Source of the DNA: a virus
DNA: 44,231 bases
IMG/VR virus record: IMGVR_UViG_3300003830_000002
Direction: 5' to 3' (one strand)
The translations under genes and the position numbers were made by a program. Positions 16,954 to 33,853 of this stretch are shown here, one piece after another (the first letter of the stretch is position 1; each line of letters starts with the position of its first letter). Below the pieces are notes generated by a model. It saw only the letters and a list, made by a program, of their open reading frames with translations. It searched no databases and was not told the origin of the DNA.

Positions 16954-16982
16954 ATTGTAGATCAATAATTTACCTACGTCAA
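16954..16982 (-). promoter_or_regulatory. Sigma70-type promoter TTGACG-N17-TACAAT with operator in the spacer, embedded in the end of the polymerase gene
   Basis: The minus strand reads TTGACG TAGGTAAATTATTGATC TACAAT. The -35 hexamer is the last two polymerase codons, and the polymerase TAG stop is the first triplet of the operator. Confidence 0.6.
16958..16976. promoter_or_regulatory. 19-bp operator palindrome, copy with 2 mismatches (TAGATCAAT A ATTTACCTA)
   Basis: Compared by eye with the perfect palindrome at 32695-32713; one mismatch in each half-site. Confidence 0.55.
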
Positions 16983-19004
16983 CGCATAAAACCCAATATC
17001 TTTTAACATCGCTTCGGCCTTGGACGTGTACCACGCATAGTCGATATCGTCCGGGAATTGCTCCGGCAAGTTCATGCACGGCCGGGCGCCATAGGATAGC
17101 GACACGGTGTTGCCGTTGCTGGCATACACGATGGGGCCGGGCGCTTGGGTGCTGTAATACCAGCGCACCACTTTGCCCAAGTATTCCGGCGTTTGCGGCT
17201 GGAAGCATGTGCCGTAAGCTGTGGTCGCATCCGTCACACTGTCACCCTTGCGCCACTTGCGGCCCTCTTTGACCCAGCCGCACGCCTGCAACGTGCCGAC
17301 CATATCCATGACCCTGGCGCCCTTGCGCGGCCCTTCGCCCCACATTTTCACGCCGCCGCCGTTGACCTTTTGAATGGTCACAAATTTGCGAATGTCCCGG
17401 CATGCTGCAATCGTGTAAAAAATGGGCGTACCCTTCGACAAGAATTCGGCCACGGCGTCCGCGCAAATCTCGACGTCGGGGTTCTTTTTCTCCACTAATC
17501 CGGCTTTGCTGTATTCCCCTTTGCGCTTCACTTCCCCGTCGGTCTTCACGGCAAAATAATTATTCACGTCACGGGAGTAGACCGCCTGATATTCCACTGT
17601 TTCCATTTCCAGCCCCGTGCGCTTTTGCCATTCGGCAATCAGGGCTTCACTCACGGGCACTTTTTCGCGGGGGCACTTGATAACGACGCCGTCGGTGTTC
17701 GCGCTGATAACCGGAATGCCGTAAATTTCGTGCCATTCAATCAGCATCAAAAGGGACAATTGGCCCGTGATTGTTGTTTGAATCAACATGGTCGGCGCAA
17801 ATAGAACGCTGTACGGGCTCCCGGTCTTGCCAAAAGTCCCGTTAATCATAATCTTGCCGCCTTCGTTGCCGACCTTCGCGTCTTCGTATTCTTCACCCTC
17901 AGTGCGTCCGGCTTTCTTCAATTTACCTTGCAACTCTTTGGCGGCTAGGCGTTCGTTTTTGATGGCCTCATATTCCTGCAAAAAGGTTTGCCCAAGTGCT
18001 GGGGGCCATTCGCCAGAATTGAGAATCAACGACGGGTAATAGCTGGCGACGTCATTGTCCCGCAAAACCCAATTTTCGTCGGAGCGGTGGACAATGGTTT
18101 CTTCCCGGCTGTGCAATCCACCAATGCCCACTTTATAGGTCGACTGGTTGATCGTGATAAGCAAACCTTCAAGCTGTGGCGGCATTTCGACCGTACCTTT
18201 TGGCCCCAGCATAAAAACGGATTCGCGCACCAATTCAAGCGCCTTTTGAAGCTGTGGCAAGCCGTAGGAAATAAACGGCGGCACCTTATAACGAAAGCGC
18301 AAATTCCAATCAATTTCCGGCTTAAAAATGCGTTGCCCTGTGGCCTGTTCGCATCGACGCTTCAATACGGCTTCGGCTAGTTGGGCATCCGATTTGCTCC
18401 GCAAGTCAATGCCATAGCGTGCGCTCAGTGCGACCCGCTGATGAATTTGCGGGGCCAGGGCATCAAAGAGGGCTTCAAGGACGGCAAGGTCGTTTTCACA
18501 ATAGGCGTCGACTTCCACAATTTCCGCTTCGGTCACGTAATGGCCTGGGTCATAGGGTAGGTCGCGCATGGTGGGGCAATGGATGCGCCCGGCGTATTGC
18601 TTTTGACTTCCGGCACCTGGCGCCACTTCCATGACGTCGATATGGTCCGAAGGCTTCCATTCAGGCAAGCCCAATTCCCACGGCTTCACCTTTTCAACAA
18701 TGATGCGGTCGTTAAGCCATTTCAATTGCTCCGCGGTGTAGCCGGAGAGGGCCGCGGTAATCATGGGCACGTCGTAATAATTGCCGTTGAAACTAACCGC
18801 GCAAAAGGCGTCGAACAGTAGCCGAATGCGGGCGGCCGTGGCCTGGTCAAACGCTTGACCCGCACGAAGCCGGAAGCCATACGCCTGGCCGCCACGGGGG
18901 CGGAACTTCAACAGCCAATAGTTTGGGAAACATTCGGTATCGTAAAAGGCAACGGGGCGGCTTGCGGTGGCCGGTGGGGGCGGTGGCGGGGCAATTTGCA
19001 TCAT
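16974..19004 (-). CDS. Family B DNA polymerase with 3'-5' exonuclease domain
   Basis: Exo motifs are FYDTE, SFNGNYYDVPM and YCENDLAVL. Polymerase motifs are DNDVASYYPSLI (A), KIMINGTFGKTG (B) and SANTDGVVI (C). ATG 19004 is in an ATGA overlap with the deaminase stop and follows GGGGGA. Confidence 0.8.
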   Translation of the reverse strand: MMQIAPPPPPPATASRPVAFYDTECFPNYWLLKFRPRGGQAYGFRLRAGQAFDQATAARIRLLFDAFCAVSFNGNYYDVPMITAALSGYTAEQLKWLNDRIIVEKVKPWELGLPEWKPSDHIDVMEVAPGAGSQKQYAGRIHCPTMRDLPYDPGHYVTEAEIVEVDAYCENDLAVLEALFDALAPQIHQRVALSARYGIDLRSKSDAQLAEAVLKRRCEQATGQRIFKPEIDWNLRFRYKVPPFISYGLPQLQKALELVRESVFMLGPKGTVEMPPQLEGLLITINQSTYKVGIGGLHSREETIVHRSDENWVLRDNDVASYYPSLILNSGEWPPALGQTFLQEYEAIKNERLAAKELQGKLKKAGRTEGEEYEDAKVGNEGGKIMINGTFGKTGSPYSVLFAPTMLIQTTITGQLSLLMLIEWHEIYGIPVISANTDGVVIKCPREKVPVSEALIAEWQKRTGLEMETVEYQAVYSRDVNNYFAVKTDGEVKRKGEYSKAGLVEKKNPDVEICADAVAEFLSKGTPIFYTIAACRDIRKFVTIQKVNGGGVKMWGEGPRKGARVMDMVGTLQACGWVKEGRKWRKGDSVTDATTAYGTCFQPQTPEYLGKVVRWYYSTQAPGPIVYASNGNTVSLSYGARPCMNLPEQFPDDIDYAWYTSKAEAMLKDIGFYALT

Positions 19005-19432
19005 TCCCCCAGCGCCGTAATTTGCGTGCCGCATTCGTTGAACATCAATTGCGCTTGGTGCATTTCAATTCCCCAGCGTTCAATAAAGTCGACCGGCGGC
19101 AACGGATACACAACGCGGGCAATGCCGCTTTGAATCAGCTTTGCCGCGCACCTGGCGCACGGCGGCCGGGTCACATAAATGGTCATACCCGTGACATTAC
19201 GCCGCGCAAAGAGCAAGGCGTTTTCTTCCGCGTGAATCGTTCGCAGCAATTTGACTTCACGGTCAACCGGGGAATCATCAACGCCTTGCGGAAAGCCATT
19301 GAAGCCAGTCGAAACAATGCGTTTGTCTTGGTCGACAATCACGGCGCCGACCTGGGTCGACGGGTCTTTGCTCCAACTGGCAACAAGCGAAGCCAGCGCA
19401 ATAAAACGGGCATCCCATTTACTCATAATCAA
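19001..19432 (-). CDS. dCMP (deoxycytidylate) deaminase
   Basis: 143 aa with zinc-ligand motifs HAEENA and PCARCA at the usual spacing. Confidence 0.8.
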   Translation of the reverse strand: MIMSKWDARFIALASLVASWSKDPSTQVGAVIVDQDKRIVSTGFNGFPQGVDDSPVDREVKLLRTIHAEENALLFARRNVTGMTIYVTRPPCARCAAKLIQSGIARVVYPLPPVDFIERWGIEMHQAQLMFNECGTQITALGE

Positions 19433-19824
19433 TACTTCTTGCCGTTTTCAAGTTTGCGATTTTCCGGCTTATGGTCCGGCCGTGTGGCATTGAATGCCAG
19501 TTTTTCAGCGATAGCGCCGCCAAGATCAAGACCCAAGGCGCCCGCCAAATCTGCAATGCGAATCACGGCGTCGGCAAGTTCCACTTCAACCATAGGGCGG
19601 TGCGGGAGCTTGTCGTCGGGTAAATTCTTGCGGTGGCCTTCCATGGCTTCGGACACTTCCGAAACAATGAGCATGAGCTTTTCACCCACAACATGGGGCC
19701 GGTCGATAATCGGCGCCCCGGTTTCCAAATCATTCCACCAGCCCGCGGCCACGCTGGCACCGTGGCAAATCCGTACAAGTTCATTGCCGCACGACACGGC
19801 CAATTTGTTGTCGTTCATCTTCAT
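19429..19824 (-). CDS. MazG-like nucleotide pyrophosphohydrolase
   Basis: Motifs LMLIVSEVSEAMEGHR and EVELADAVIRIADLAGALGLDL are typical of MazG-type NTP-PPases. ATG 19824 was chosen because the longer track ORF runs into the upstream hairpin. Confidence 0.7.
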   Translation of the reverse strand: MKMNDNKLAVSCGNELVRICHGASVAAGWWNDLETGAPIIDRPHVVGEKLMLIVSEVSEAMEGHRKNLPDDKLPHRPMVEVELADAVIRIADLAGALGLDLGGAIAEKLAFNATRPDHKPENRKLENGKKY

Positions 19825-19843
19825 TTTGAATTCCAAAAGTGAG

Positions 19844-19870
19844 CCCGGCCCCGAAGGGCCAGGGGTTTGA
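19844..19870 (-). terminator. Possible intrinsic terminator/attenuator between the SSB-like and MazG-like genes
   Basis: A GGCCC-cgaa-GGGCC hairpin, extendable by CCC/GGG with one bulge, is followed on the minus strand by ctcaCTTTTgg. The stem is short and the T-tract weak. Confidence 0.3.
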
Positions 19871-19871
19871 G

Positions 19872-20882
19872 TTAGGCAACCATCAAGCCGTTTGCCACAA
19901 GTTGCGCGTCGTTCCATCCGGCGGCAATGTAGGCTTCATACGTTGCACCATTGGCCGCCGCGGTCATTTGGCGAACCGGCGCCACCGGGGCGGGCGGCGC
20001 TGGCGGGGGAGCCATTGGGGCCGCTGGGGGCGGTACTTGCACGAATATCGGGTTAGGCGTCACCGGAATGGGTGCAGGCATGCCAGGGACGGCCGGGGGC
20101 GCATAGGCGGCAACCGGGGCACCCATGGGCACGCCAGGCAGCACGGGTACACCGGCGGGCATTCCGGGCACTGGCGGCGGCATGTAGCCAGCCGGGGCAC
20201 CTGGGAGCGCCGGAGCGGCTGCAGGGGCTTGAGCCTGTGGCATTGGGATTGCGCCAGCGGGCGGCGTCATGCTTGCGCCAGCGGGCAAGGCCGATTGACC
20301 AAAGCCAGCCGACGACACGTCCGGGCCAAATTGAATTTCCTGACCGTAGGCGCGGAAGCAAACCATGCTGTGATTGAGGTAGACGCCCGGCTGACTGGTC
20401 GAACCGTTGCCGTCGGCGCTGAATGCCACTTCAACGAAATAGCCAGGCTTGCAAAAGTCTTTTTGCATGACTTGCACGTAACCGGCGCCCTCTTGCTGGT
20501 ATACCTTCGGGGCAAAGCCGCCGGAGAATTTCAAAATCCAATGACCGCGCCAACCTTCGTTATCGCAAGGTTTGCGGCCTTTCTTGTTCGGGATTTGTGA
20601 ATCGCCGTCTTCAATCTTCCAAGCGAACGCGGGGGACTGTGCGGCGTTGGGGTGCGCCTGGTTGCCGACGGCCCAAATTTGTTGCCCCCAAGGGGTATGC
20701 GCCCAATGCGGTTCCGCACCCTTCGGAATTGCCAACGCGAAAAAGTAGTTGACGCGGGGCTGGCCTGCATTGGGGCCGGTCTTGACGACCAGCGGTTTGC
20801 CTTCGGCGTCCGTGGTGCTGGGGTCATACAGCGACCCCATGACAATGCGGCCGACCGGGGAAGTGATATTTACTTTTGCCAT
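19872..20882 (-). CDS. ssDNA-binding protein candidate (DUF2815 / T7 gp2.5-like) with Pro/Ala-rich linker and small C-terminal domain
   Basis: 336 aa. The N-terminal 200 aa (AKVNITSPVGRIVMGSLYDP...YFFALAIPKG) resemble DUF2815. The gene sits next to a DUF2800-like nuclease and the polymerase, the usual arrangement for this module. Confidence 0.55.
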   Translation of the reverse strand: MAKVNITSPVGRIVMGSLYDPSTTDAEGKPLVVKTGPNAGQPRVNYFFALAIPKGAEPHWAHTPWGQQIWAVGNQAHPNAAQSPAFAWKIEDGDSQIPNKKGRKPCDNEGWRGHWILKFSGGFAPKVYQQEGAGYVQVMQKDFCKPGYFVEVAFSADGNGSTSQPGVYLNHSMVCFRAYGQEIQFGPDVSSAGFGQSALPAGASMTPPAGAIPMPQAQAPAAAPALPGAPAGYMPPPVPGMPAGVPVLPGVPMGAPVAAYAPPAVPGMPAPIPVTPNPIFVQVPPPAAPMAPPPAPPAPVAPVRQMTAAANGATYEAYIAAGWNDAQLVANGLMVA

Positions 20883-20896
20883 TTGGAAAACTCCTA

Positions 20897-22039
20897 TTAA
20901 GTTGAAGTGCCGAAGACGCGACGCGCATCGGCTGGATTATCGGGAACTAATTTGATCGACCCCAATGGAGTCACACTATAAGCCTTAATGACGGCTTCGT
21001 CAACACCCGACTTAACGGCTTGTTTCGGGGTCTTTACGCCAGGCTTTGAAAGGTCGACGCCCATGAGCGAACCCATAGCCAAAACTTGTTCGACGGGCAT
21101 GGTCCATTGCTGGCGACCGTACCCCTGTTCCACACGATGCCAGGGCACGGAATGACCTTGCCGAATGTACGCCCCCACGGCTTCGCGCATCCCTTCGACG
21201 CGGCTTTGCAACCGTTCTAAGGACCGTTCCAGCATCTTTAATTCAAGGCTTGCGGCCGCTGGCGGCAACTCCACGGGGGACGATTTAACGGCAAATTCGG
21301 CGTCGTAGTAAGCTGCCTTTTGCAAGGCTGGGCACGCATGGCGGCCGGGGCAATCTCCGCACTCCGAATTTGTCACGGCGGGCGGATTTGGAGCCAGGGC
21401 AACGGCCGCCGCGCCGGTCAATAAATTGATGTGGCCGCGAAGTTCCGACGCCATAATTGACCAAGTGCGAACCGGCGAACCCTTGTAAAAGCATCGCGGC
21501 TGAATTACCGTAAAATTAACTTTGCAATGCTGGTCGAACAGGCCCGGACCTTCCCCGAACTTTTCCGCCAGCATATCCACAATGCCCGTGATGTACGCGA
21601 CGCCCTGGTCATTTTCGTATTCATCGACAAAGCGGTGGCCGAATTTGTAGTCGATGACTTCCAGCACCCGCGGCGAAACGGAGAACGCCCAAATATCCGG
21701 CGTGCCCCAGCATTGCGGGTGAATGCGTGAGCAAGCGACCGCCTCTTCCACACGGGGCGCCCCGAAGCGTTCGACGGGCATGCGGGCGCGGACGGTTTCG
21801 ACAACCAGTTCCCCGCCTTCAATCATTTCTTCGGTCACGACCACGCCGTTAGGCGCAATCAAGCCTTCACAAACGATGCGCCCGGCCAGCATTTCGGCAA
21901 AGACCCAATGGGCCGCGTTGCCTTCCATACTCTCCGGCGTGTCCGGTTTCGGGTAAGCCTGATTCATTGCGACCCAAAGGCCGCAACGGCGCCAGGCCGC
22001 CGCCCCGGAAGGCGGCAAGACTGAATGGGCGCCTGACAT
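20897..22039 (-). CDS. DUF2800-like PD-(D/E)XK (Cas4/RecB-like) nuclease
   Basis: The N-terminus SVLPPSGAAAWRRCGLWV...EGNAAHWVFA matches the DUF2800 pattern. A Cys cluster (CGDCPGRHACPAL) lies in the C-terminal part. Confidence 0.65.
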   Translation of the reverse strand: MSGAHSVLPPSGAAAWRRCGLWVAMNQAYPKPDTPESMEGNAAHWVFAEMLAGRIVCEGLIAPNGVVVTEEMIEGGELVVETVRARMPVERFGAPRVEEAVACSRIHPQCWGTPDIWAFSVSPRVLEVIDYKFGHRFVDEYENDQGVAYITGIVDMLAEKFGEGPGLFDQHCKVNFTVIQPRCFYKGSPVRTWSIMASELRGHINLLTGAAAVALAPNPPAVTNSECGDCPGRHACPALQKAAYYDAEFAVKSSPVELPPAAASLELKMLERSLERLQSRVEGMREAVGAYIRQGHSVPWHRVEQGYGRQQWTMPVEQVLAMGSLMGVDLSKPGVKTPKQAVKSGVDEAVIKAYSVTPLGSIKLVPDNPADARRVFGTST

Positions 22040-23097
22040 TATCGGGCCGCAATCATGGCGTCGACCTTGGCGGCAACCTGGGCCACAAGGTCAAGACGGT
22101 TTGCCAAAAGGGGCAGCGCGGGCACGCCAGCGGCGGCGCAGCATTGCGTTATTTCGGCTTGCGTCACCTTGCCCGCCTGGATTGCAGCGGAAGCGCGGCC
22201 CACCAGCCCCACGAATTGGGCGCGGGCGTCTTGCGGCACTTCACCGACCGGAGCGGCCAAAGGCGCGGGCGGCGGTGGGGCAACCGGGGCCACTGGTGCG
22301 GTCGGGGGCGCGGGGACAGCTACGGCCGAAGAGACAACCCCAGCGGTCGGCATTGTCACAGTCGCCGCCTGTGGGGCAGGGATAGGGGCGACCGGAGCCA
22401 AAGGGGCGGCGGGGGCGGCGGGGGCGGCGCCCATAACCTGGCGCAATTCAGCTTCAACCGTGACAACCAGCGCCGGGTCGACGCCGCGTTTCTTGCGCCA
22501 TGTGCCGTCGGCAATCTTGGCTTTGCTTTCGGCATGAATGCGGCCATCCCACGGCAAGCCGGTTTTGTCCAAATCAACGGCGCCGACAGGGCTCCCGGTT
22601 TGGGGTGCAGCAATCGCCGCCGCGGGTGCGGAGTTCGGTGCAGGGGGTACGGGGGCGGTCGGTATCGCGGCAAAAGTAGTCGCCGTCGTATCCGCGGGGG
22701 CAGTCAAGGACGGAGCGGCAACCGCAATAGAGGGGGCAGCGGTTGCCCCAAGGGGCAAAGGGGGCGGGGCGCTCCCGAAGACGGCCGCGGCGTTGGCATC
22801 GCCAGCCGGGGCGCCGAATGCCACGGAAGCGTCGAACTCGCCGCCCTCTTTGGCAAGGTGCGCAATTTCATCATTCAACGCCAGCACGGCGCCGACTGGA
22901 TTTGCTGCAACGGCCGCGGCAACGGCGGTCGGCACGCGAAGGGTTACGGCTTCCGTGTTGTCGTGAATCTCAGCCGCGACGCTGGTGTGGCAAGTGCCGC
23001 CGCACGCCTTGGACGGGTAAGCCAGAATGAAGCCCGCGACGGCTTCGCGTTGTTCCTGAGTCAGCCCGGAAGGGTCGACGGTGATTTGCATGGACAT
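22039..23097 (-). CDS. Ala/Pro-rich low-complexity protein with conserved GLPWDGRIH motif (unknown function)
   Basis: 352 aa and first gene of the minus-strand operon. Short structured islands (N-terminal 60 aa, VDLDKTGLPWDGRIHAESKAKIADGTWRKKRG, C-terminal 60 aa) are separated by A/P tracts. Confidence 0.65.
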   Translation of the reverse strand: MSMQITVDPSGLTQEQREAVAGFILAYPSKACGGTCHTSVAAEIHDNTEAVTLRVPTAVAAAVAANPVGAVLALNDEIAHLAKEGGEFDASVAFGAPAGDANAAAVFGSAPPPLPLGATAAPSIAVAAPSLTAPADTTATTFAAIPTAPVPPAPNSAPAAAIAAPQTGSPVGAVDLDKTGLPWDGRIHAESKAKIADGTWRKKRGVDPALVVTVEAELRQVMGAAPAAPAAPLAPVAPIPAPQAATVTMPTAGVVSSAVAVPAPPTAPVAPVAPPPPAPLAAPVGEVPQDARAQFVGLVGRASAAIQAGKVTQAEITQCCAAAGVPALPLLANRLDLVAQVAAKVDAMIAAR

Positions 23098-23187: not shown

Positions 23188-24411
23188 ATGATATTGAACT
23201 TAGATTGCCGCCACGGTTTGGCAATGCTTCCTGATAACAGCGTCGACGCCATCCTTACCGACCCGCCCTACGAAATCGGATTTATGGGCAACGCCTGGGA
23301 CCGCTCCGGCATCGCCTACGACGTCGCCATGTGGCGCGAAGCCTTGCGGGTCTTGAAGCCCGGCGGCCACATTCTGGCATTCTCCGGGTCGCGCACCTAT
23401 CACCGGATGACATGCGCCATTGAAGACGCCGGGGCGGAAATTCGGGATTCCATCATGTGGGTCTACGGCTCCGGGTTCCCCAAGTCTTTGGACATTTCCA
23501 AGGCGCTGGACAAGCTGGCAGGGGCCGACCGTCAAGTGGTGGGCCAGCAATACCGGGCGGCAACCGGACGCGACGAAGGGTACGGCTTCGGGGAGAGTTT
23601 CGACATTACCGCACCGGCTACCCTGGCCGCGCAAATTTGGGAAGGCTGGGGCACGGCACTAAAGCCAGCGCATGAACCGATTTGCGTAGCCCGCAAGCCG
23701 CTGGCACTGGGCACTGTGGCCGCCAACGTGCTGGCGCATGGTGTGGGCGGGCTCAATATTGACGGCTGCAGGATTGCCATTGACCCAGCGGCGGACGCTT
23801 CCCAGCTTCGCACCATGGCCGTAAGCCAGCATGACGGGGCCGACGGGTGGGGCATGAACACCAGCCGCGCAAATCCGGCCGCCCGTGTGCTGGGTGAGGA
23901 AGGGCGTTGGCCTGCAAATTTCATTCATGACGGGTCGCCGGAAGTGCTGGCAATGTTCCCGCAAGCAACCGGCGCAAAAGCACCAGTGCGGGGCACCGAA
24001 GGAAGCCCGGCCAGCGACGGCCAGGTGGGCAACTTCCGGGAGCGTGTCGCCAGCGCGGAGCCCCGCGGGGACGCTGGAAGCGCCGCCCGGTTTTATCAGC
24101 AATGCGCCTTCACTCAAGACGATTTGGAAGCCGCCTTGTTTCACTATTGCGCGAAGGCCAGCAAGCGCGAAAAGGGCGCCGACAACACCCACCCGACCGT
24201 TAAGCCTATCGCCTTGGGGCGCTACCTGGCCCGCCTCATTTGCCCGCCCGGCGGCACTTTGCTGGACCTGTTCGCCGGGTCGGGTTCGTTTGGCGTTGCT
24301 GCAAAACTAGAGGGCTTCGGCTTCGTCGGCTTTGAGAAAGAAGCCGGGTCGGCAGATATCGCAAACCGCCGCCTAGTGCTGCTTCCCGTTGCCTTCGGTG
24401 CTTGTGCGTAA
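23188..24411 (+). CDS. DNA methyltransferase, N6A/N4C type (DPPY motif IV before motif I; beta-class order), no partner endonuclease seen
   Basis: Motif IV ILTDPPYEIG lies near the N-terminus and motif I FAGSGSFGVAA near the C-terminus; 407 aa. Confidence 0.8.
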   Translation: MILNLDCRHGLAMLPDNSVDAILTDPPYEIGFMGNAWDRSGIAYDVAMWREALRVLKPGGHILAFSGSRTYHRMTCAIEDAGAEIRDSIMWVYGSGFPKSLDISKALDKLAGADRQVVGQQYRAATGRDEGYGFGESFDITAPATLAAQIWEGWGTALKPAHEPICVARKPLALGTVAANVLAHGVGGLNIDGCRIAIDPAADASQLRTMAVSQHDGADGWGMNTSRANPAARVLGEEGRWPANFIHDGSPEVLAMFPQATGAKAPVRGTEGSPASDGQVGNFRERVASAEPRGDAGSAARFYQQCAFTQDDLEAALFHYCAKASKREKGADNTHPTVKPIALGRYLARLICPPGGTLLDLFAGSGSFGVAAKLEGFGFVGFEKEAGSADIANRRLVLLPVAFGACA

Positions 24412-24825: not shown

Positions 24826-24844
24826 TAGATAAATGATTTACCTT
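24826..24844. promoter_or_regulatory. Degenerate copy of the 19-bp operator (TAGATAAAT G ATTTACCTT)
   Basis: The left half-site is perfect and the right half-site has 2 mismatches. It lies 34 nt upstream of the helicase ATG. Confidence 0.4.
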
Positions 24845-26914: not shown

Positions 26915-27396
26915 CACCCCACGTCTACCAATGGGCCGCCCGGCACGGTGTAAGCATGCAAGCCCTTCACGAACTGCAAGCCCTCTTTGGCATGAACGGC
27001 GGCCACGATCTACCGCCGACCGTCAAGGGCACCAGTGAAGCGGCCGTGCAATCCGCTGTGCGCCTGGAAGCGGCACGCAAGGGGGTGCGCCTGTTCCGCA
27101 ACAACGTCGGCGCCCTGATTGATTCCCGTGGCGTGCCGGTGCGGTATGGCCTGGCGAACGAATCCAAACAGGTCAACGAGGTTATGAAATCGGCGGACCT
27201 TATCGGCTGGCGGCCGCTGCAAATTGAGCAACACCACGTCGGGCAATGTGTGGCCGTCTTCGTGTCCCGCGAATGCAAAAAGGTTGGCTGGCAATATACC
27301 GGGGACGCGCACGAACTGGCGCAACTGGCTTGGGCGCAACTGGTCACGGCTTCCGGCGGCGACGCGGCCTTTTGCACCGGAGAGGGCACGCTATGA
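26911..27396 (+). CDS. VRR-NUC domain nuclease
   Basis: ATG 26911 is in an ATGA overlap. The pattern EAAVQSAV...GVRLFRNNVG...SADLIGW...FVSRECKK...ELAQLAWAQLVTASGG fits the VRR-NUC E..D..EVK..Q layout. Confidence 0.65.
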   Translation: MTPHVYQWAARHGVSMQALHELQALFGMNGGHDLPPTVKGTSEAAVQSAVRLEAARKGVRLFRNNVGALIDSRGVPVRYGLANESKQVNEVMKSADLIGWRPLQIEQHHVGQCVAVFVSRECKKVGWQYTGDAHELAQLAWAQLVTASGGDAAFCTGEGTL

Positions 27397-28094
27397 AAAT
27401 TCAAACATGCCCGGAATGTGGGGAAATTTTGCCGGTTGTTGATGCTGATAAGGTCGCATGCGACGCCTGTGGTACTTGCGTCGATTACGATAAACCCAAG
27501 CATGTGATTGCTCTATCGGGCGGTAAGGATTCGACGGCGCTGGCGTTGCGCTTGATGGAAGTTGAACCCCGCGACTATGAGTTCATTTGCAATTACACCG
27601 GCAACGAACTTCCCGAACTGTTCGACCACCTTGAACGCATGGAACAGCTTTTGGGTAAGCCAATAAAGCGCGTCGCCTACCATACCGACCTTTATGGGTT
27701 GATTGATGAAACCCAAATGCTGCCCAATTTTCGCGCCAGGTTTTGCACCCGCGTTTTGAAGATTGAACCGACCATAGAATATTTCGAGAGTTTGCCAGCC
27801 GGTTCCGTGTTATATGTTGGACTCCGGGCCGACGAAGAATTGCGCCAAGGTCTTTTTGGTGAAGATATTGTGTCGCGGTTCCCCATGCGGGAATGGGATT
27901 GGGGCATAAAGGAGGTTTACAGTTATCTTGACGACCGGGGAATTTGCGTGCCGACGCGGACTGATTGCGCCGTATGCCCTTTCCAACGCCTTGGGGAATG
28001 GCGCGACCTTTGGCTAAATAACCCCTTTGAATATTGGAGGGGGGGCCGCCGTGGAAATGCACTACGGCCACACGTTCCGAAGCCCTGGTCGTGA
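27393..28094 (+). CDS. PAPS-reductase-like PP-loop protein with N-terminal zinc ribbon; reading frame broken at a G7 run (intact form would end at 28197)
   Basis: ATG 27393 is in an ATGA overlap. The PP-loop is ALSGGKDSTA. After GGGGGGG (28039-28045) the assembled frame yields 17 unrelated residues before the stop. The +1 frame continues as AAVEMHYGHTFRSPGRDTWPASLVDLAKEFERGRP..., which looks like the natural C-terminus. Confidence 0.7.
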   Translation: MKIQTCPECGEILPVVDADKVACDACGTCVDYDKPKHVIALSGGKDSTALALRLMEVEPRDYEFICNYTGNELPELFDHLERMEQLLGKPIKRVAYHTDLYGLIDETQMLPNFRARFCTRVLKIEPTIEYFESLPAGSVLYVGLRADEELRQGLFGEDIVSRFPMREWDWGIKEVYSYLDDRGICVPTRTDCAVCPFQRLGEWRDLWLNNPFEYWRGGRRGNALRPHVPKPWS

Positions 28095-28258: not shown

Positions 28259-28561
28259 ATGCGCCTACACCCTGACAACCGAAAAGAACAAATCATTGAT
28301 GCCGCCGTGAAGGTCGCCGGACAGCCTGGGGGCTGGGCAAAGCTGACACGCGAAGCCGTCGCCCGTGAAGCCCAATGCGCCGAAGGGCTTATTTCAAAAT
28401 ATTTCGGCACCATGATTACGTTTCGACGCACCATCATGCGCCACGCAATCAAGGCCGCGAACCTGTCCGTCGTCGCCCAAGGTTTGGCGGCCGGTGACAG
28501 CTATGCAAAGAAAGCCGACCCGGAGTTGAAGGCCCGCGCACTCGAAACCCTGGCAGGTTGA
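28259..28561 (+). CDS. Short TetR-like HTH DNA-binding protein (DNA-binding domain only)
   Basis: RKEQIIDAAVKVAGQPGGWAKLTREAVAREAQCAEGLISKYFGT follows the TetR_N pattern. At 100 aa it is too short to carry a ligand-binding domain. Confidence 0.6.
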   Translation: MRLHPDNRKEQIIDAAVKVAGQPGGWAKLTREAVAREAQCAEGLISKYFGTMITFRRTIMRHAIKAANLSVVAQGLAAGDSYAKKADPELKARALETLAG

Positions 28562-28564
28562 CCA

Positions 28565-30958
28565 ATGCGCGAACTTCCACCAGCTTTAGGGCCAATGGGT
28601 GCATATCGACAATTTATTGTTTATATGGCGCAACCCAGCCGAACACGCCCCGGCAAAACTGACAAATTCCCCGCCGACTTCCGCTCCGGCCGTGTGGTAT
28701 CCGCGCACGACCCCTCCTTTTGGACGGACCACGCGACCGCCATTGCCGCCGCCACGACGCTGGGTGGCTCCTACGGCGTGGGGTTCGTTTTCACGGAAGC
28801 CGACCCCTTTTGGTTTATCGACCTTGATGGTTGCCTATTGCCCGACGGTTCCGATTGGTCCCCGGTAGCAAAGGTGCTTTGTGGGGCGTTTGCTGGCGCC
28901 GCTGTGGAAGTGAGCCAAAGCGGCCGGGGCTTGCATATTTTCGGAAGCGGCCGCCCGCCCCTGCATGGTTGCAAAAATGAAGCCCTGGGCCTTGAGTTCT
29001 ACCATTCCGGGCGCTTCGTTGCACTCACGGGCACCAGCGCCAGCGGTAACGCCGCCGCGGACTTTACGCATCTACTACCCAGCCTGGTCGCGCAATACTT
29101 CCCGCCGGACGCCGCGCAAGCCATGGAACAAGGATGGACCGAAGGCCCGGCCGCCGAATGGCGCGGACCTACCGACGACGACGAACTTATCCGCCGGGCG
29201 TTGCGGTCACAATCCACGGCTTCCGCATTTGGGGGCCGGGCCAGCTTTGCGGACCTGTGGACGGGCAACATGGAAGCCCTGGCCCGCGCCTACCCTGACC
29301 CCGCCCGCGGCTATGATTCCAGTAGCGCCGACGCCGCCCTGGCGCAACATTTGGCATTTTGGACGGGCAAAGATTGCGCCCGGATTGATAGGCTTATGCG
29401 CCGTTCCGAGCTGGCCCGTGACAAGTGGGAACGTGAAGACTATTTGCCCCGCACCATCCTGGGCGCCGTGGGCCGTCAATTTGAAGTGCTGACCGACAAG
29501 GCCCTTGAACCTGTGGCCGGTGCGCCAGAAAGCCCGGCACCCAGCGCCAGCACCGAACCGCCCCGGCCGACCATGGTGACGGGCGCCAGCTTCGTGAATA
29601 ACGACATGCAATTGCAACTGTTCGCCGGTTGCGTCTACGTTCAAGACCTTCACCGCGTCCTAGTGCCTGGCGGCGTCATGCTCAAGCCGGAGCAATTCAA
29701 AGTTCATTTTGGCGGCTACACCTTCACCATGGATGCCGCGAACGAAAAGACAACAAAGGACGCATGGGAAGCCTTCACGCAAAGCCAGGCTTACCGCTGC
29801 CCGCGTGCAAATGCCCCATGCTTCCGACCTGACTTGCCGCCCGGCTCCCTGGTGCAGCGCGGGGGCCAAACCTTTGTCAACACCTATTGGCCGGTCGATG
29901 TTCCGCGCAAAGCTGGGGACGGCTCCCCGTTCCTCAATCACTTGGCAAAGGTGTTACCGGACGAACGCGACCGCTTTATCCTGCTGTGCTACATGGCCGC
30001 ATGCGTGCAACACAAGGGCGTTAAATTCCAATGGGCGCCGCTTCTGCAGGGCGTTGAAGGTAACGGCAAAACCCTGTTCACCCGGTGCGTTGCGGAAGCC
30101 GTGGGGCGCCGTTATGTCCATTGGCCCAAGGCGTCAAAGCTGGCCGCGCAATTCAATTCATGGATGATTGGGAAACTCTTTTACGGCGTGGAAGATATTT
30201 ACGTGCCGGACCAAAAGCGCGAAATTATCGAAGAGTTGAAACCCATGATTACCGGCGGCGACGGCCTGGAAATTGAAGGCAAGGGCGTCGACCAAATCAG
30301 CGCGGACGTGTGCGGCAATTTCATGTTCAACAGCAACCACCAAGACGCCGTAAGGAAGACCAAAAACGACCGCCGGTTCTGCCTGCTATTCAGTGCCCAA
30401 CAACAGGCCGAAGACTTGAAGCGCGACGGCATGGATGGTGATTACTTCCCGCGCCTTTATGACTGGCTCCGGGCTGACGGTTACGCCATTGTTTCGGACT
30501 TGCTCCACACGTTCCCAATCCCTGACGAATACAACCCGGCCACACATTGCCAACGGGCACCAGTCACCACCAGCACCGCGGCCGCTATCAGCGCCAGCAC
30601 GGGCGGCGTCGAACAAGAGGTACACGAAGCCATCGCCCAAGGGCTCCCCGGCTTTTGCGGGGGCTGGATATCGTCAATTCAACTCGACCGCCTGCTGGAA
30701 CGCCTGGGGGTTGCCCGCCGCGTCACGCATTCCAAACGTAAAGAAATGCTCAACGACCTGGGGTATGCCTACCATCCCGCCCTTGTGGAAGGTCGCGTCA
30801 ACAATCTGGTATTGCCGGACGGCGGAAAGCCCCGCCTCTTTGTCAAGACCGACAGCCCCGCCCGTGCCATCCAAGGGGCCGCGGAAGCCGCCAAAGCCTA
30901 CGAACAGGCCAACAACCATAACCGCGTGCCGTTCCCCCTGGCGCCCGTGCATCTATGA
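28565..30958 (+). CDS. Bifunctional primase-polymerase (AEP) / SF3 helicase (D5/P4-like)
   Basis: AEP motifs are FIDLDGC and SGRGLHIFG. The C-terminal half carries the Walker A LLQGVEGNGKTLF; 797 aa. Confidence 0.8.
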   Translation: MRELPPALGPMGAYRQFIVYMAQPSRTRPGKTDKFPADFRSGRVVSAHDPSFWTDHATAIAAATTLGGSYGVGFVFTEADPFWFIDLDGCLLPDGSDWSPVAKVLCGAFAGAAVEVSQSGRGLHIFGSGRPPLHGCKNEALGLEFYHSGRFVALTGTSASGNAAADFTHLLPSLVAQYFPPDAAQAMEQGWTEGPAAEWRGPTDDDELIRRALRSQSTASAFGGRASFADLWTGNMEALARAYPDPARGYDSSSADAALAQHLAFWTGKDCARIDRLMRRSELARDKWEREDYLPRTILGAVGRQFEVLTDKALEPVAGAPESPAPSASTEPPRPTMVTGASFVNNDMQLQLFAGCVYVQDLHRVLVPGGVMLKPEQFKVHFGGYTFTMDAANEKTTKDAWEAFTQSQAYRCPRANAPCFRPDLPPGSLVQRGGQTFVNTYWPVDVPRKAGDGSPFLNHLAKVLPDERDRFILLCYMAACVQHKGVKFQWAPLLQGVEGNGKTLFTRCVAEAVGRRYVHWPKASKLAAQFNSWMIGKLFYGVEDIYVPDQKREIIEELKPMITGGDGLEIEGKGVDQISADVCGNFMFNSNHQDAVRKTKNDRRFCLLFSAQQQAEDLKRDGMDGDYFPRLYDWLRADGYAIVSDLLHTFPIPDEYNPATHCQRAPVTTSTAAAISASTGGVEQEVHEAIAQGLPGFCGGWISSIQLDRLLERLGVARRVTHSKRKEMLNDLGYAYHPALVEGRVNNLVLPDGGKPRLFVKTDSPARAIQGAAEAAKAYEQANNHNRVPFPLAPVHL

Positions 30959-31119
30959 GCCCCGGCCACTTCACCAACATGGCGACACTGATTTGCGGCC
31001 CCGCGGGCTTGCTGGTGCGCTATGAGTGGTCGGGGCGATTGCTTCCGCTGGAATTTCTACCGGGGCGCCCGGCGGGTCAAGAGCATCAAGAAAGCGGCGG
31101 CCGTAATCCAAGCCGCTGA
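30955..31119 (+). CDS. 54-aa ORF candidate coupled to the primase gene
   Basis: ATGA overlap with the primase stop. Hand translation gives MSPGHFTNMATLICGPAGLLVRYEWSGRLLPLEFLPGRPAGQEHQESGGRNPSR. There is no independent support. Confidence 0.3.
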   Translation: MSPGHFTNMATLICGPAGLLVRYEWSGRLLPLEFLPGRPAGQEHQESGGRNPSR

Positions 31120-31127
31120 AAAACTTG

Positions 31128-31157
31128 TTGACGCTAGATAAATAATTTAGCTATAAT
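31128..31157 (+). promoter_or_regulatory. Sigma70-type promoter TTGACG-N18-TATAAT with operator in the spacer (drives the pentapeptide/ParB-like operon)
   Basis: The sequence is cttgTTGACG ctagataaataatttagc TATAAT. It lies 41 nt upstream of ATG 31198, which has a GGAGAGG Shine-Dalgarno. Confidence 0.7.
31135..31153. promoter_or_regulatory. 19-bp operator palindrome, 1 mismatch (TAGATAAAT A ATTTAGCTA)
   Basis: Compared with the perfect copy at 32695-32713. It overlaps the -10 hexamer. Confidence 0.65.
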
Positions 31158-31197
31158 TTACCCGTGACATATTTTTAACCACCTGGAGAGGTACACC

Positions 31198-31800
31198 ATG
31201 AAGATTGAAATCAAAAGCCGCTTTTATCTGCAAATCTTGTTCTCACATGAATGCGAAGACAACAGCGTCGCAATTACTTTGGCCGCCGCGATAAACGCGA
31301 AAGCGAACCTTTACGGCGCGGACCTTCGCGGCGCGAACCTTCGCGGCGCGAACCTTTACGGCGCGGACCTTTACGGCGCGAACCTTCGCGGCGCGGACCT
31401 TTACGGCGCGAACCTTTACGGCGCGAACCTTTACGGCGCGGACCTTTACGGCGCGAACCTTCGCGGCGCGGACCTTTACGGCGCGAACCTTCGCGGCGCG
31501 AACCTTTACGGCGCGAACCTTCGCGGCGCGGACCTTGGTGAATCTGGAAAATTGACCGGCGACCGTCCGTTTTTCCAAGTCGGCCCAATCGGTTCGCGGC
31601 AAGACGTTTTAGCGGCGTTCCTCACGGAAAAGGGGGTATTCCTTCGCGCCGGTTGTTTCTTCGGCACTGTGGAAGAGTTCAAGGGCAAGCTGCAGGACAA
31701 ACACGGGGACAACTTGCACGCGGTCGAATACCGCGCCGCTTTGGTGCTGATTGAAGCGCATTATTCCGCCTGGCCCGCGACTGTGACCGAAGGGGAATAA
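31198..31800 (+). CDS. Pentapeptide-repeat protein (16 consecutive A(N/D)L(Y/R)G units) with unique N- and C-terminal domains
   Basis: The translation shows [15 protein letters not shown] ... ADLGE without interruption. It is flanked by a 35-aa N-terminal segment and an approximately 85-aa C-terminal segment ([32 protein letters not shown]...). Confidence 0.85.
31303..31542 (+). repeat. Tandem repeat, 16 x 15 bp, GCG(A/G)ACCTT(TA/CG)CGGC
   Basis: The units were aligned by hand. They vary only at the A/G position and the TA/CG dinucleotide; the last unit is degenerate. The repeat is in frame with the pentapeptide CDS. Confidence 0.9.
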
Positions 31801-31802
31801 GC

Positions 31803-32642
31803 ATGGAAAATTTTACAGACACAATGACCGCGGGCAACGTCAAAGCCGCAATGAAAGAAGTCGGCGCCGTGAGTGCTGACCTGTGGCAAGTCACGCCGGA
31901 CAAATTGCGGGTGCTGGAAGGCTTCAATGCCCGCGTGAAGAATGAAGCGTACACCGGCCGCGTGCGCTGGATTGCTGACAGCATCAAGGCAAACGGCTAT
32001 TACAAGGATAAGCCCCTTTCCGGCTTCGTGGCCCGTGAAGGCGACGACAACGTCATTTATGTGACCGGGGGCCATCGTCGGCATGAAGCCGTTTTGCTGG
32101 CTATCAGTGAAGGCGTGGAAGTGCCCGCCGTGCCGGTTATCGTGAGCCCCAAGGGCACCAGCATGGAAGACTTAACGGTCGCCCTTGTGGTGGGCAATGA
32201 CGGGGAGCCCTTGAGCCTGTACGAAGCCGCGGTCGTGTGCAAGCGCCTGGCGGCCTTCGGCTGGTCTTCCCAAGAGATTGCCCGGCGCCTGGGGTATGCG
32301 TCCGCACAATACGTCGACGGCCTGCTGGCGCTGGCCGGGGCACCCCTGGCAATCCGCAAAATGGTAATGGAAAACGTCATTGCGGCCACGACAGCCATTG
32401 AAGCCATAAAGAAGCACGGGGACAAGGCGGTCGACGTGCTGCTGGCCGCCTTGGTCAAGTCCGGGGGCGGGCGTGTCACGACCAAGCACATGCCGCAAGC
32501 TGAATTCAAAAAGGCCGTGCGCAAGCTGGCCGAACCGATGCACACGGCGTTGACCAAGGTGCAGGCCGACCCCGGCTTCGCCAGCCTATCGGAAGAGGTC
32601 CGGGGTATCCTGGCGGAACTGCTGGGGAGCATCAAGCAGTAG
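31803..32642 (+). CDS. ParB/KorB-like N-terminal-domain protein with HTH (no ParA partner in the genome)
   Basis: ParB box motifs are LRVLEGFNAR and VIYVTGGHRRHEAVLLA. The HTH is SSQEIARRLGYASAQYVDGLLAL. It starts 3 nt after the pentapeptide gene stop. Confidence 0.7.
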   Translation: MENFTDTMTAGNVKAAMKEVGAVSADLWQVTPDKLRVLEGFNARVKNEAYTGRVRWIADSIKANGYYKDKPLSGFVAREGDDNVIYVTGGHRRHEAVLLAISEGVEVPAVPVIVSPKGTSMEDLTVALVVGNDGEPLSLYEAAVVCKRLAAFGWSSQEIARRLGYASAQYVDGLLALAGAPLAIRKMVMENVIAATTAIEAIKKHGDKAVDVLLAALVKSGGGRVTTKHMPQAEFKKAVRKLAEPMHTALTKVQADPGFASLSEEVRGILAELLGSIKQ

Positions 32643-32662: not shown

Positions 32663-32684
32663 GCCCGCCGCGTGCGGGCTTTTT
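32663..32684 (+). terminator. Rho-independent terminator after the ParB-like gene
   Basis: Stem GCCCGC-cgcgt-GCGGGC followed by TTTTT, 20 nt after the stop codon. Confidence 0.75.
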
Positions 32685-32688
32685 CTTG

Positions 32689-32717
32689 TTGACGTAGATA
32701 AATTATTTATCTATAAT
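32689..32717 (+). promoter_or_regulatory. Sigma70-type promoter TTGACG-N17-TATAAT with a perfect operator in the spacer
   Basis: The sequence is cttgTTGACG tagataaattatttatc TATAAT. It drives the 99-aa gene at 32750. Confidence 0.75.
32695..32713. promoter_or_regulatory. 19-bp operator, perfect palindrome TAGATAAAT T ATTTATCTA
   Basis: The reverse complement of TAGATAAAT is ATTTATCTA. The operator fills the spacer and overlaps the first two bases of the -10 hexamer. Confidence 0.7.
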
Positions 32718-33782: not shown

Positions 33783-33813
33783 CTTACTTAAGATAAGACT
33801 TACTATAAGTAAG
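33783..33813. promoter_or_regulatory. Two adjacent 15-bp palindromes CTTACT-taa-GATAAG and CTTACT-ata-AGTAAG (tandem operator candidate)
   Basis: Seen directly. They are flanked by direct repeats GTATACAC at 33768-33775 and 33824-33831, in the 354-bp AT-rich divergent region. Confidence 0.5.
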
Positions 33814-33853
33814 ACGCTGTAACGTATACACCCTATGGATTTTATATATTTAA

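Follow-up and report, generated by a model that had tools for sequence, protein, structure and literature searches.

A viral family of pentapeptide-repeat proteins with length-unstable, homogenised arrays and a conserved C-terminal domain

The viral sequence IMGVR_UViG_3300003830_000002 (IMG/VR; 44,231 nucleotides, in the following called the window) contains an open reading frame (ORF) at 31198-31800 on the plus strand, stop codon included, that encodes a pentapeptide-repeat protein of 200 amino acids (aa). The protein belongs to a family that is overwhelmingly viral and has one single constant element, the C-terminal domain; the solenoid differs in both length and type. Within each lineage the DNA of the repeat array is homogenised, and the array gains and loses units quickly.

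A capped pentapeptide solenoid encoded by a 15-bp tandem repeat

The 200-aa protein is composed of an N-terminal part of 35 aa, the repeat array and a C-terminal part of 85 aa. Tandem Repeats Finder places one array at 31303-31536 (15.6 copies of period 15, score 342, 86% matches), and no other repeat within the window comes anywhere near it in strength. Fifteen units at 31303-31527 fit the consensus GCGRACCTTYRCGGC with 0 mismatches (unit pattern GCG-RAC-CTT-(TAC/CGC)-GGC), and the 16th unit, GCGGACCTTGGTGAA at 31528-31542, encodes ADLGE and is off consensus in its last 6 bases. The original prediction for this gene, made from the sequence alone, had described 16 near-identical units between unique flanks of 35 aa and about 85 aa: the reading frame bears out the flanks, and of the units 15 are perfect and the last one is diverged. 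When the window is scanned with GCGRACCTTYRCGGC allowing up to two mismatches, 24 matches are found (1.6 expected), and outside the array nothing in the whole window has fewer than two mismatches.

At the protein level, the perfect units are of four types (five ANLYG, five ANLRG, four ADLYG and one ADLRG), and in all 16 units, the diverged one included, position 1 is Ala and position 3 is Leu. The codons are equally uniform: Leu is encoded by CTT in 16/16 units, compared to 17.8% CTT in 16 long genes of the phage (P about 1e-12), and Ala by GCG in 16/16 units, compared to 28% in the phage's long genes (P about 1e-9). The use of one single Leu codon and one single Ala codon across the units means that their likeness goes beyond protein constraint and results from recent common descent. 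Shifted against itself by 1-10 units, the array has an identity of 0.87-0.93.

The Pfam model PF00805 (Pentapeptide) matches the protein with E = 3.9e-32 (109.9 bits, cut-off 20.2). The exact 200-aa protein has no database record, and the database protein P0001 is the same protein except for the number of units.

In the AlphaFold model of the full-length protein (48-sequence alignment; predicted local distance difference test (pLDDT) 87.6, predicted template modelling score (pTM) 0.65) the protein has three parts: an N-terminal cap, a pentapeptide beta-helix of four coils and an 85-aa alpha/beta domain that has no description in the curated libraries. The predicted cap (aa 1-33, pLDDT 92-96) consists of two strands (2-7 and 13-18) and a helix (24-33), and its sequence MKIxIKxRxxxxVLF is kept across the pentapeptide-type family members. 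Over the array (aa 36-115, pLDDT 83-92) the model has a beta-bridge each 5 residues from aa 41 to 112, which makes four coils; the original prediction had expected about four from 16 units. The C-terminal part is compact, with four strands and two helices at aa 126-191; when modelled alone, the domain has a pLDDT of 90.1 and again four strands followed by two helices.

A Foldseek search against the PDB agrees with the beta-helix: it returns pentapeptide-repeat structures with a root-mean-square deviation (rmsd) of 0.5-0.6 A over about 72 columns and E values down to 8e-8. The top matches are generic or designed solenoids (Np275, synthetic 'beta1' proteins, HetL), and MfpA, QnrB1 and AlbG are at ranks 23-48. 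The array is therefore predicted with good confidence to form a right-handed quadrilateral beta-helix in which each coil takes four units.

One constant element in the family: the C-terminal domain

With the last 87 aa as query, a search identified 64 relatives; they have the cap and the C-terminal domain in common, and unit number is the main difference among them. When a profile of this domain alone was searched against 1.84 billion cluster representatives, it matched 2,803 clusters (50% identity) at E <= 1e-3 and 1,001 clusters at E <= 1e-10. In these proteins, which are 83-447 aa long, the domain is always C-terminal. PF00805 is present in 122 of the top 149, and no other domain is recurrent. 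Four residues are invariant among these 149 representatives (G132, C153, F161 and Y178) and a further twelve are conserved in at least 90% (R123, P124, G129, S133, T143, G146, G152, H169, H174, E177, A181 and H188). The motifs of the domain, GPIGS(R), (R)AGCF, HGxNxHxxEY and a late His-x3-Trp, all lie within aa 129-192 of the window protein.

There is no Pfam, NCBIfam or PADLOC model of this domain. It is covered by PHROGs 20532 and 7964, both of 'unknown function' (phrog_20532 with E = 2.8e-10 on aa 125-195). Ten diverse C-terminal domains, scanned against Pfam at E <= 10, yielded no recurrent match, and Foldseek found no fold match to the C-terminal model in the PDB (best E = 1.3). Searches of PDB sequences with the domain, either as single sequence or as profile, returned only polyubiquitin and a ClpC fragment; these matches are spurious, and in the case of polyubiquitin every individual stretch in the two alignments listed has E > 1000. 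A PADLOC scan of the repeat protein for relatives in defence systems found none.

The same domain is also found behind other solenoids. Fold matches in BFVD have it behind hexapeptide/LbH-like (left-handed beta-helix-like) or bactofilin-like solenoids, and gp34 of the Ruminococcus phage phiRM10 (locus L026, 2542-2990) independently combines a homogenised solenoid array with the same C-terminal domain: its gene has 24.9 copies of an 18-bp unit (89% identity) encoding G(N/D)A(R/Q/W)V(S/Y), and its C-terminal domain is homologous to that of the window protein (hhalign 98.3%, E = 1.9e-14). The gp34 gene lies just upstream of Mu-Gam-like, Rad52, NinB and NinG genes. In the Bacillus phage Bobb and the Paenibacillus phage Pd_22F, irregular six-residue solenoids are followed by the same C-terminal domain. 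Together with the Bacillus phages phiAGATE and Bp8p-T and the Aeromonas phage PX29, these phages have proteins that share with the window protein the homologous C-terminal domain and the position of the gene in an early region, but differ in their six-residue units and in the N-terminal region; their annotations, acyltransferase-like or cytoskeletal, derive from similarity, and no test of these names came up. As the C-terminal domain occurs behind different types of solenoid, it is this domain that stays constant in the family and the solenoid that can be exchanged.

The family has 202 loci in IMG/VR and 3 loci in 185,579 representative bacterial genomes, with somewhat different search patterns for the two sets. 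Three proteins that appear to consist of the C-terminal domain alone (P0018, P0020 and P0062) are probably truncated gene calls, as the first codon of each is an internal Leu codon and the starts of many contigs fall within the array.

The array changes in length and is homogenised within lineages

Three near-identical copies of the locus were found, and the array is their only length difference: it has 16 units in the window, 6 units in contig k141_649789 (locus L001; ENA sample ERZ27293407) and 7 units in the JGI contig Ga0065182_1069834 (locus L016). The left flank of the 6-unit copy has 0 mismatches in 10,105 bp and the right flank 1 in 10,258 bp; the flanks of the 7-unit copy are identical in 724/724 and 303/303 bases. 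The 6-unit allele corresponds to units 1-4 and 15-16 of the window, joined over a 36-bp identical stretch (units 3-4 equal units 13-14), which is the product that would be expected from slippage or unequal recombination.

Unit number also differs among more distant relatives. The 53 complete relatives in IMG/VR have a median of 22 units (range 1-39), and in the family proteins the counts are evenly spread from 1 to 30. Neither the family set nor the 53 complete relatives show a preference for multiples of four, indicating that the orientation of the cap relative to the C-terminal domain is not conserved. Most arrays of the 53 complete relatives have pairwise unit identities of 0.8-0.93 and one Leu codon. 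This codon is not the same everywhere: the window array uses CTT throughout, and locus L023, with 32-34 units, uses CTG throughout. Such a lineage-specific single Leu codon reads as a signature of concerted evolution. A tract of variable length and a recent expansion or concerted evolution had both been anticipated in the original prediction, and the near-identical loci as well as the comparison across related phages agree with it. There is a precedent in culture: the phages L and ST64T are more than 99.9% identical, and one of only two sites that differ is a 15-bp pentapeptide unit in a gene of the early left operon (PMC8022706).

Arrays of this kind are difficult to assemble. From a total of 80 related viral contigs, 27 stop within the array, compared to 2.3 expected (P about 4e-20; IMG/VR loci L032-L109); for contigs of at least 20 kb the numbers are 15/47 and 0.5. 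Contigs of genome length are among the 27, with the array as the exact point of linearisation. The genome-length contig IMGVR_UViG_3300022744_000010 (43.7 kb) has the array at both ends (L033 and L012). The array is a systematic assembly breakpoint, and long arrays are under-represented in the databases. Because contigs break inside the arrays, short-read assemblies are biased to short arrays and some of the unit counts may be wrong. In the same direction, long-read viral data are 26-fold richer in pentapeptide repeats than assemblies are (PMC9238414).

Genomic setting and expression signals

With about 44 kb, the window represents the complete or nearly complete genome of a contractile-tailed phage. 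The structural genes are similar to those of the Pseudomonas phages E217 and Pa193, and the phage encodes a DNA polymerase, a Gp2.5-like single-strand-binding protein, a dCMP deaminase, a helicase, a primase-helicase, a DUF2800 nuclease and a methyltransferase. There is no integrase among the annotated genes and no tRNA gene in the window. A megablast search for cultured relatives of the phage identified only one match of 416 bp, to the Shewanella phage SppYZU01.

The repeat gene is at the end of the replication (DNA-metabolism) module, downstream of the gene for a 797-aa primase-helicase and an unmatched 54-aa ORF; the array starts 345 bp downstream of the primase-helicase gene. The 54-aa ORF (30955-31119, plus strand) overlaps the stop codon of the primase-helicase gene by 4 bases and ends 9 bases ahead of the -35 element of the repeat-gene promoter. 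Gene calling on the near-identical contig L001 gives the same ORF, which has no PHROG or Pfam match. Downstream, the ParB-like gene (Table 1) is probably co-transcribed with the repeat gene, and the packaging genes lie beyond the ParB-like gene and the hairpin that follows it.

Table 1. Features of the repeat gene, its product and its surroundings (window coordinates)
Feature	Position	Strand	Basis
Coding sequence, 200-aa pentapeptide-repeat protein	31198..31800	+	ORF list, PF00805 match, record P0001
N-terminal cap, aa 1-35, beta-hairpin and helix	31198..31302	+	AlphaFold; role as cap inferred
Tandem array, 15 perfect and 1 diverged 15-bp units, aa 36-115	31303..31542	+	Repeat scan, AlphaFold, Foldseek
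Conserved C-terminal alpha/beta domain, aa 116-200, motifs GPIGSR, RAGCFFG, HGxNxHxxEY	31543..31797	+	AlphaFold, conservation
Sigma-70-type promoter, TTGACG - 18 nt - TATAAT	31128..31157	+	Consensus match
Operator-like imperfect palindrome TAGATAAAT-A-ATTTAGCTA within the promoter spacer	31135..31153	.	1 mismatch to the perfect copy; repressor binding inferred
Shine-Dalgarno sequence GGAGAGG, 5 nt upstream of ATG	31186..31192	+	Read from the sequence
ParB-like gene, 279 aa, start 3 nt past the stop of the repeat gene	31803..32642	+	PHROG 1033 ParB-like partition protein, E = 4e-52
Terminator-like hairpin GCCCGC-CGCGT-GCGGGC, then TTTTTCTT; ends the two-gene unit	32663..32689 (hairpin 32663-32679)	+	Consensus scan, sequence

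A ParB-like gene adjoins the repeat gene, on either side, in 7 related phages of the same clade and not elsewhere in the family. It is upstream of the repeat gene in 6 related phages (L036 and relatives) and downstream in the window; adjacency is kept within the clade though the order has switched. The neighbours in other relatives vary: they are Erf and RdgC, or an S24 repressor and YqaJ, or, for the hexapeptide version, Mu-Gam-like, Rad52 and NinB. The repeat gene is always found amid early genes for DNA metabolism or recombination, without a fixed partner, and of 100 genes that flank family members, 63 are singletons. As the neighbours are not constant, the repeat protein probably acts without a dedicated partner. 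A conserved neighbourhood was considered as a clue to function and dismissed: the neighbours are mostly unique and only the clade-specific primase-helicase and ParB-like genes recur.

The strong sigma-70-type promoter of the repeat gene matches the consensus at 11 of 12 positions, and TTGACG-N16-19-TATAAT occurs twice in the window (0.02 expected). The original prediction had proposed a near-consensus, repressible promoter followed by the Shine-Dalgarno sequence GGAGAGG. Both elements are present; for the repressible part there is the operator-like palindrome in the spacer, and the repressor is a candidate only. The second promoter (TTGACG-17-TATAAT, 32689-32717) contains the perfect version of this palindrome, TAGATAAAT-N-ATTTATCTA, at 32695-32713. 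The window has four sites of this 19-bp palindrome in total, at 16958-16976 (minus strand), 24826-24844, 31135-31153 and 32695-32713, compared to 0.00 expected. Three of the copies fill the spacers of TTGACG-17/18-TA(T/C)AAT promoters, which lie at the end of the DNA polymerase gene (minus strand), ahead of the repeat gene and ahead of a 110-aa ORF at 32717. The four sites look like a phage-wide class of operators or promoters, and repression of the repeat gene via the putative operator is a reasonable reading. A candidate binder of the palindromic promoter sites is a 100-aa protein encoded just upstream of the primase-helicase gene (28259-28561, plus strand; PHROG 8723, function unknown), which has a borderline TetR_N helix-turn-helix match (23.7 bits, cut-off 24).

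Two further observations concern other parts of the window. Genes related to nucleotide or DNA modification are clustered at 19001-23097 (minus strand), 23188-24411 (plus) and 27246-28094 (plus): they encode the dCMP deaminase, a pyrophosphatase, the DUF2800 nuclease, an N6/N4 methyltransferase and a PAPS-reductase-like protein, which suggests that the phage modifies its own DNA or nucleotide pool. At 33783-33815, 2.1 copies of the 16-bp unit CTTACTATAAGTAAGA, itself palindromic, lie in the intergenic region between a divergent 230-aa gene and the small terminase gene; they may be a regulatory or packaging site.

Likeness to known proteins

The same A(D/N)LXX units are present in generic proteins of the Rfr (repeat five residues) fold, such as Np275/Np276 of Nostoc, HetL, Alr5209 and consensus-designed synthetic beta-solenoids. 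The synthetic consensus solenoids superimpose on the predicted beta-helix of the window protein with an rmsd of 0.5-0.6 A at 54-64% identity. However, none of these proteins has the N-terminal cap sequence or the 85-aa C-terminal domain, and the window protein stays below the NCBIfam cut-offs for Alr5209 (73 bits, cut-off 125) and HetL (60 bits, cut-off 260). Most of the generic Rfr-fold proteins are without known function as well.

QnrA/B/S, MfpA, AlbG, McbG and EfsQnr, all small cytoplasmic proteins, have the fold class in common with the window protein but are weaker structural matches. A monomer of MfpA or Qnr has about eight coils or more and forms dimers via a C-terminal helix. The window protein, in contrast, has an alpha/beta domain in the place of this helix and four coils, about half of a Qnr or MfpA monomer, and its 6- and 7-unit alleles would have less than two; in the family, the number of units is unconstrained.

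Pentapeptide genes of P22-like phages (ST104 orf19, ST64T/L orf232) resemble the window gene in being early-operon genes that draw on the same set of units, A(N/D)L(Y/R/C)(G/D), and their function is unknown. Their N-terminus is unlike that of the window protein. The C-terminal region of ST104 orf19 has a short stretch, xVRAGCxxxTVEEW, in common with it (hhalign 31.8%, 23 columns), a similarity that does not establish common ancestry of the domains. The ST104 gene (L004, 3980-4624) has about 21 units and is located between ral and orf78/17/c3/kil/erf/abc. Given the weak C-terminal homology, this early-left-operon context (ral, erf, abc) was downgraded from a functional clue to an analogy.

T7 Ocr and ArdA are likewise accessory proteins of phages or plasmids that are expressed early, and the original prediction had put forward an anti-restriction role like theirs as one possibility for the window protein. 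Ocr and ArdA are densely acidic, whereas the window array has equal numbers of Arg and Asp. The window protein has no Pfam, PHROG or Foldseek-versus-PDB match that would relate it to proteins of this type.

Possible function and alternative explanations

We tentatively favour the following explanation, which as a whole package may well be wrong in one of its parts: the repeat protein is an early accessory protein with an active C-terminal domain and an expandable scaffold, and binds a component of DNA metabolism or defence. Our confidence in the identity of the protein and in the evolutionary part, taken alone, is much higher than in the mechanism. The protein would be made early, by the host RNA polymerase, from a promoter that a phage operator controls. 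The C-terminal domain would be the active part, and the invariant C153 and Y178 together with the near-invariant H169, H174, E177 and H188 could form a small metal- or ligand-binding site or a docking site for a protein. The capped solenoid would serve as a modular rigid scaffold or bulk element, with a length that drifts freely or is tuned. Contact with the host or phage component would be by protein-protein interaction and steric occlusion and not by imitation of the charge of DNA.

Several points weigh against this explanation. In the literature on phage pentapeptide-repeat proteins, no tested function was found for any family member, and the activity of the family is a guess from conservation and context. 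The residues Cys153, His169, His174 and Glu177 perhaps form a metal or ligand site, judging from their positions in the sequence only. The solenoid surface, which in this phage is rich in Tyr, Arg, Asn and Asp, possibly has a role itself, and a DNA mimicry based on the shape of the solenoid is possible. Finally, some of the differences in unit number may be errors of short-read assembly and not biology.

The first alternative gives the array itself the leading part. Its exposed face would be a binding surface under diversifying selection in an arms race, and changes in unit number and the exchanges N/D and Y/R would retune the recognition of a defence protein, making the array a contingency locus. 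Only positions that point outwards vary (i-1 N/D, i+1 Y/R, i+2 G/D/S), while the inward Ala and Leu do not change; in the three near-identical loci no site other than the array varies in length; homogenisation is kept in dozens of lineages, implying continuing turnover; and the difference between the phages L and ST64T is again one unit in an early gene. However, the same very small set of residues recurs at the variable positions from lineage to lineage, just as unselected shuffling of units would give, fixed inward residues are equally expected from maintenance of the fold, and there is no known target. We consider this explanation unlikely, though a serious contender.

The original prediction had proposed a candidate DNA mimic that acts on a topoisomerase or against restriction or defence. 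In such a model the beta-helix would imitate B-DNA in the manner of Qnr, MfpA and AlbG and occupy the DNA site of gyrase, topoisomerase IV, a restriction enzyme, RecBCD or another defence nuclease. This agrees with the predicted quadrilateral beta-helix, with the presence of MfpA, QnrB1 and AlbG among the Foldseek matches and with the position of the gene amid DNA-metabolism and recombination genes in several phages. The analogous gene of ST104 lies between ral (restriction alleviation) and the anti-RecBCD genes erf/abc, and McbG and QnrB are held to have DNA-mimicking features (published opinion, PMC7261183). Charge, model scores, length and the C-terminal domain all speak against it. The DNA-like charge that such a mimic was predicted to carry is not seen in the composition: with 6 Arg, 6 Asp and 1 Glu the array is near neutral (net -1 over 80 residues; pI (isoelectric point) of the whole protein 5.8), and the 124 family members with at least four units have a median array charge of -0.12 per unit, with varying sign (range -0.83 to +0.67). 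Membership in the Qnr or MfpA families was rejected, as the scores are far under the curated NCBIfam cut-offs: 27.0 bits for Qnr (cut-off 240), 39.4 for MfpA (360) and 15-35 for QnrA/B/S/C/D/E/VC (425-500). The best structural matches are generic and synthetic solenoids and not proteins that act on topoisomerases. Four coils, or less than two in the 6-unit allele, are few compared with the about eight or more of MfpA and Qnr, and the unit number is free, from 1 to 39, with no preferred value. The conserved element is the C-terminal domain, which is also found behind hexapeptide solenoids of a different cross-section. The ST104 context is an analogy, given the weak C-terminal similarity, and in phiRM10 the homologue co-occurs with a Mu-Gam-like gene, thus it does not replace Gam there. 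Altogether we regard DNA mimicry as improbable.

It is very unlikely that the length differences are artefacts of assembly and that the array is an ordinary linker of fixed length with no special dynamics. The excess of contigs that end inside the array, the 43.7-kb contig with the array at both ends and the enrichment of pentapeptide repeats in long-read data would all fit such an explanation. On the other hand, the 6- and 7-unit arrays (90-105 bp) are wholly inside contigs, come from different samples, are in frame and have perfect flanks, and the 6-unit allele has the structure expected from slippage or unequal recombination. Moreover, orthologous arrays have different Leu codons and yet are internally uniform, which assembly error cannot give, and the 15-bp difference between L and ST64T is from fully sequenced cultured phages.

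Hardly credible is a role of the 15-bp repeats as DNA, namely as replication-origin iterons with an incidental reading frame: the array is close to the primase-helicase gene and some phages have origin iterons within coding sequence (the established example is lambda O), but the frame is a near-consensus pentapeptide repeat fused to two conserved protein domains, homologous arrays hold the amino-acid pattern and change the DNA (CTT versus CTG), the gene has an unrelated genomic location in other phages, the units follow one another head to tail without spacing and number 1-39, and the cumulative GC skew has no turning point at the array. A target of a diversity-generating retroelement was also considered and rejected: the window has no second copy of the unit, there is no reverse transcriptase among the annotated genes, and the Y/R switch needs T-to-C changes besides A-to-G.

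Implications

That phages have pentapeptide-repeat proteins is already known, and homologues of the window protein are on record as hypothetical proteins. The conserved C-terminal domain, its pairing with different solenoids and the family-wide presence of homogenised, length-unstable arrays are not described in the searchable material. Pentapeptide genes of phages are routinely glossed, by similarity to Qnr or MfpA, with quinolone resistance or gyrase inhibition (for example PMC12282133; 10.64898/2026.05.02.722434). Pentapeptide-repeat genes are annotated in hundreds of phage genomes and, judging from the window protein, this gloss is unsafe. The conserved and probably functional part is the C-terminal domain, which is present in about 2,800 protein clusters and described in none of the libraries, and the array of the window protein lacks every hallmark of a DNA mimic (size, charge and sequence) that was examined.

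The arrays are the fastest-changing sites in these genomes as well as a systematic cause of broken phage assemblies, and the breakage bears on the assembly of viral metagenomes and on how 'complete' genomes are judged. If the domain does target host DNA metabolism or immunity, a widespread family would join the catalogue of anti-defence proteins and, at the same time, exemplify repeat-driven tuning in phage proteins. A more far-reaching idea, to which we would give only a small chance, is that the family is a new class of phage counter-defence or host-takeover proteins, with a Cys/His C-terminal warhead on a solenoid that is kept deliberately unstable as a contingency locus. In that case, units gained or lost in frame, together with reshuffled Tyr/Arg and Asn/Asp residues on the surface, would adjust how far or how specifically the protein acts against the immunity of the host in the course of a few generations: a protein-coding analogue of the phase-variable repeats of bacteria, which phages would have reached independently with pentapeptide and hexapeptide solenoids.

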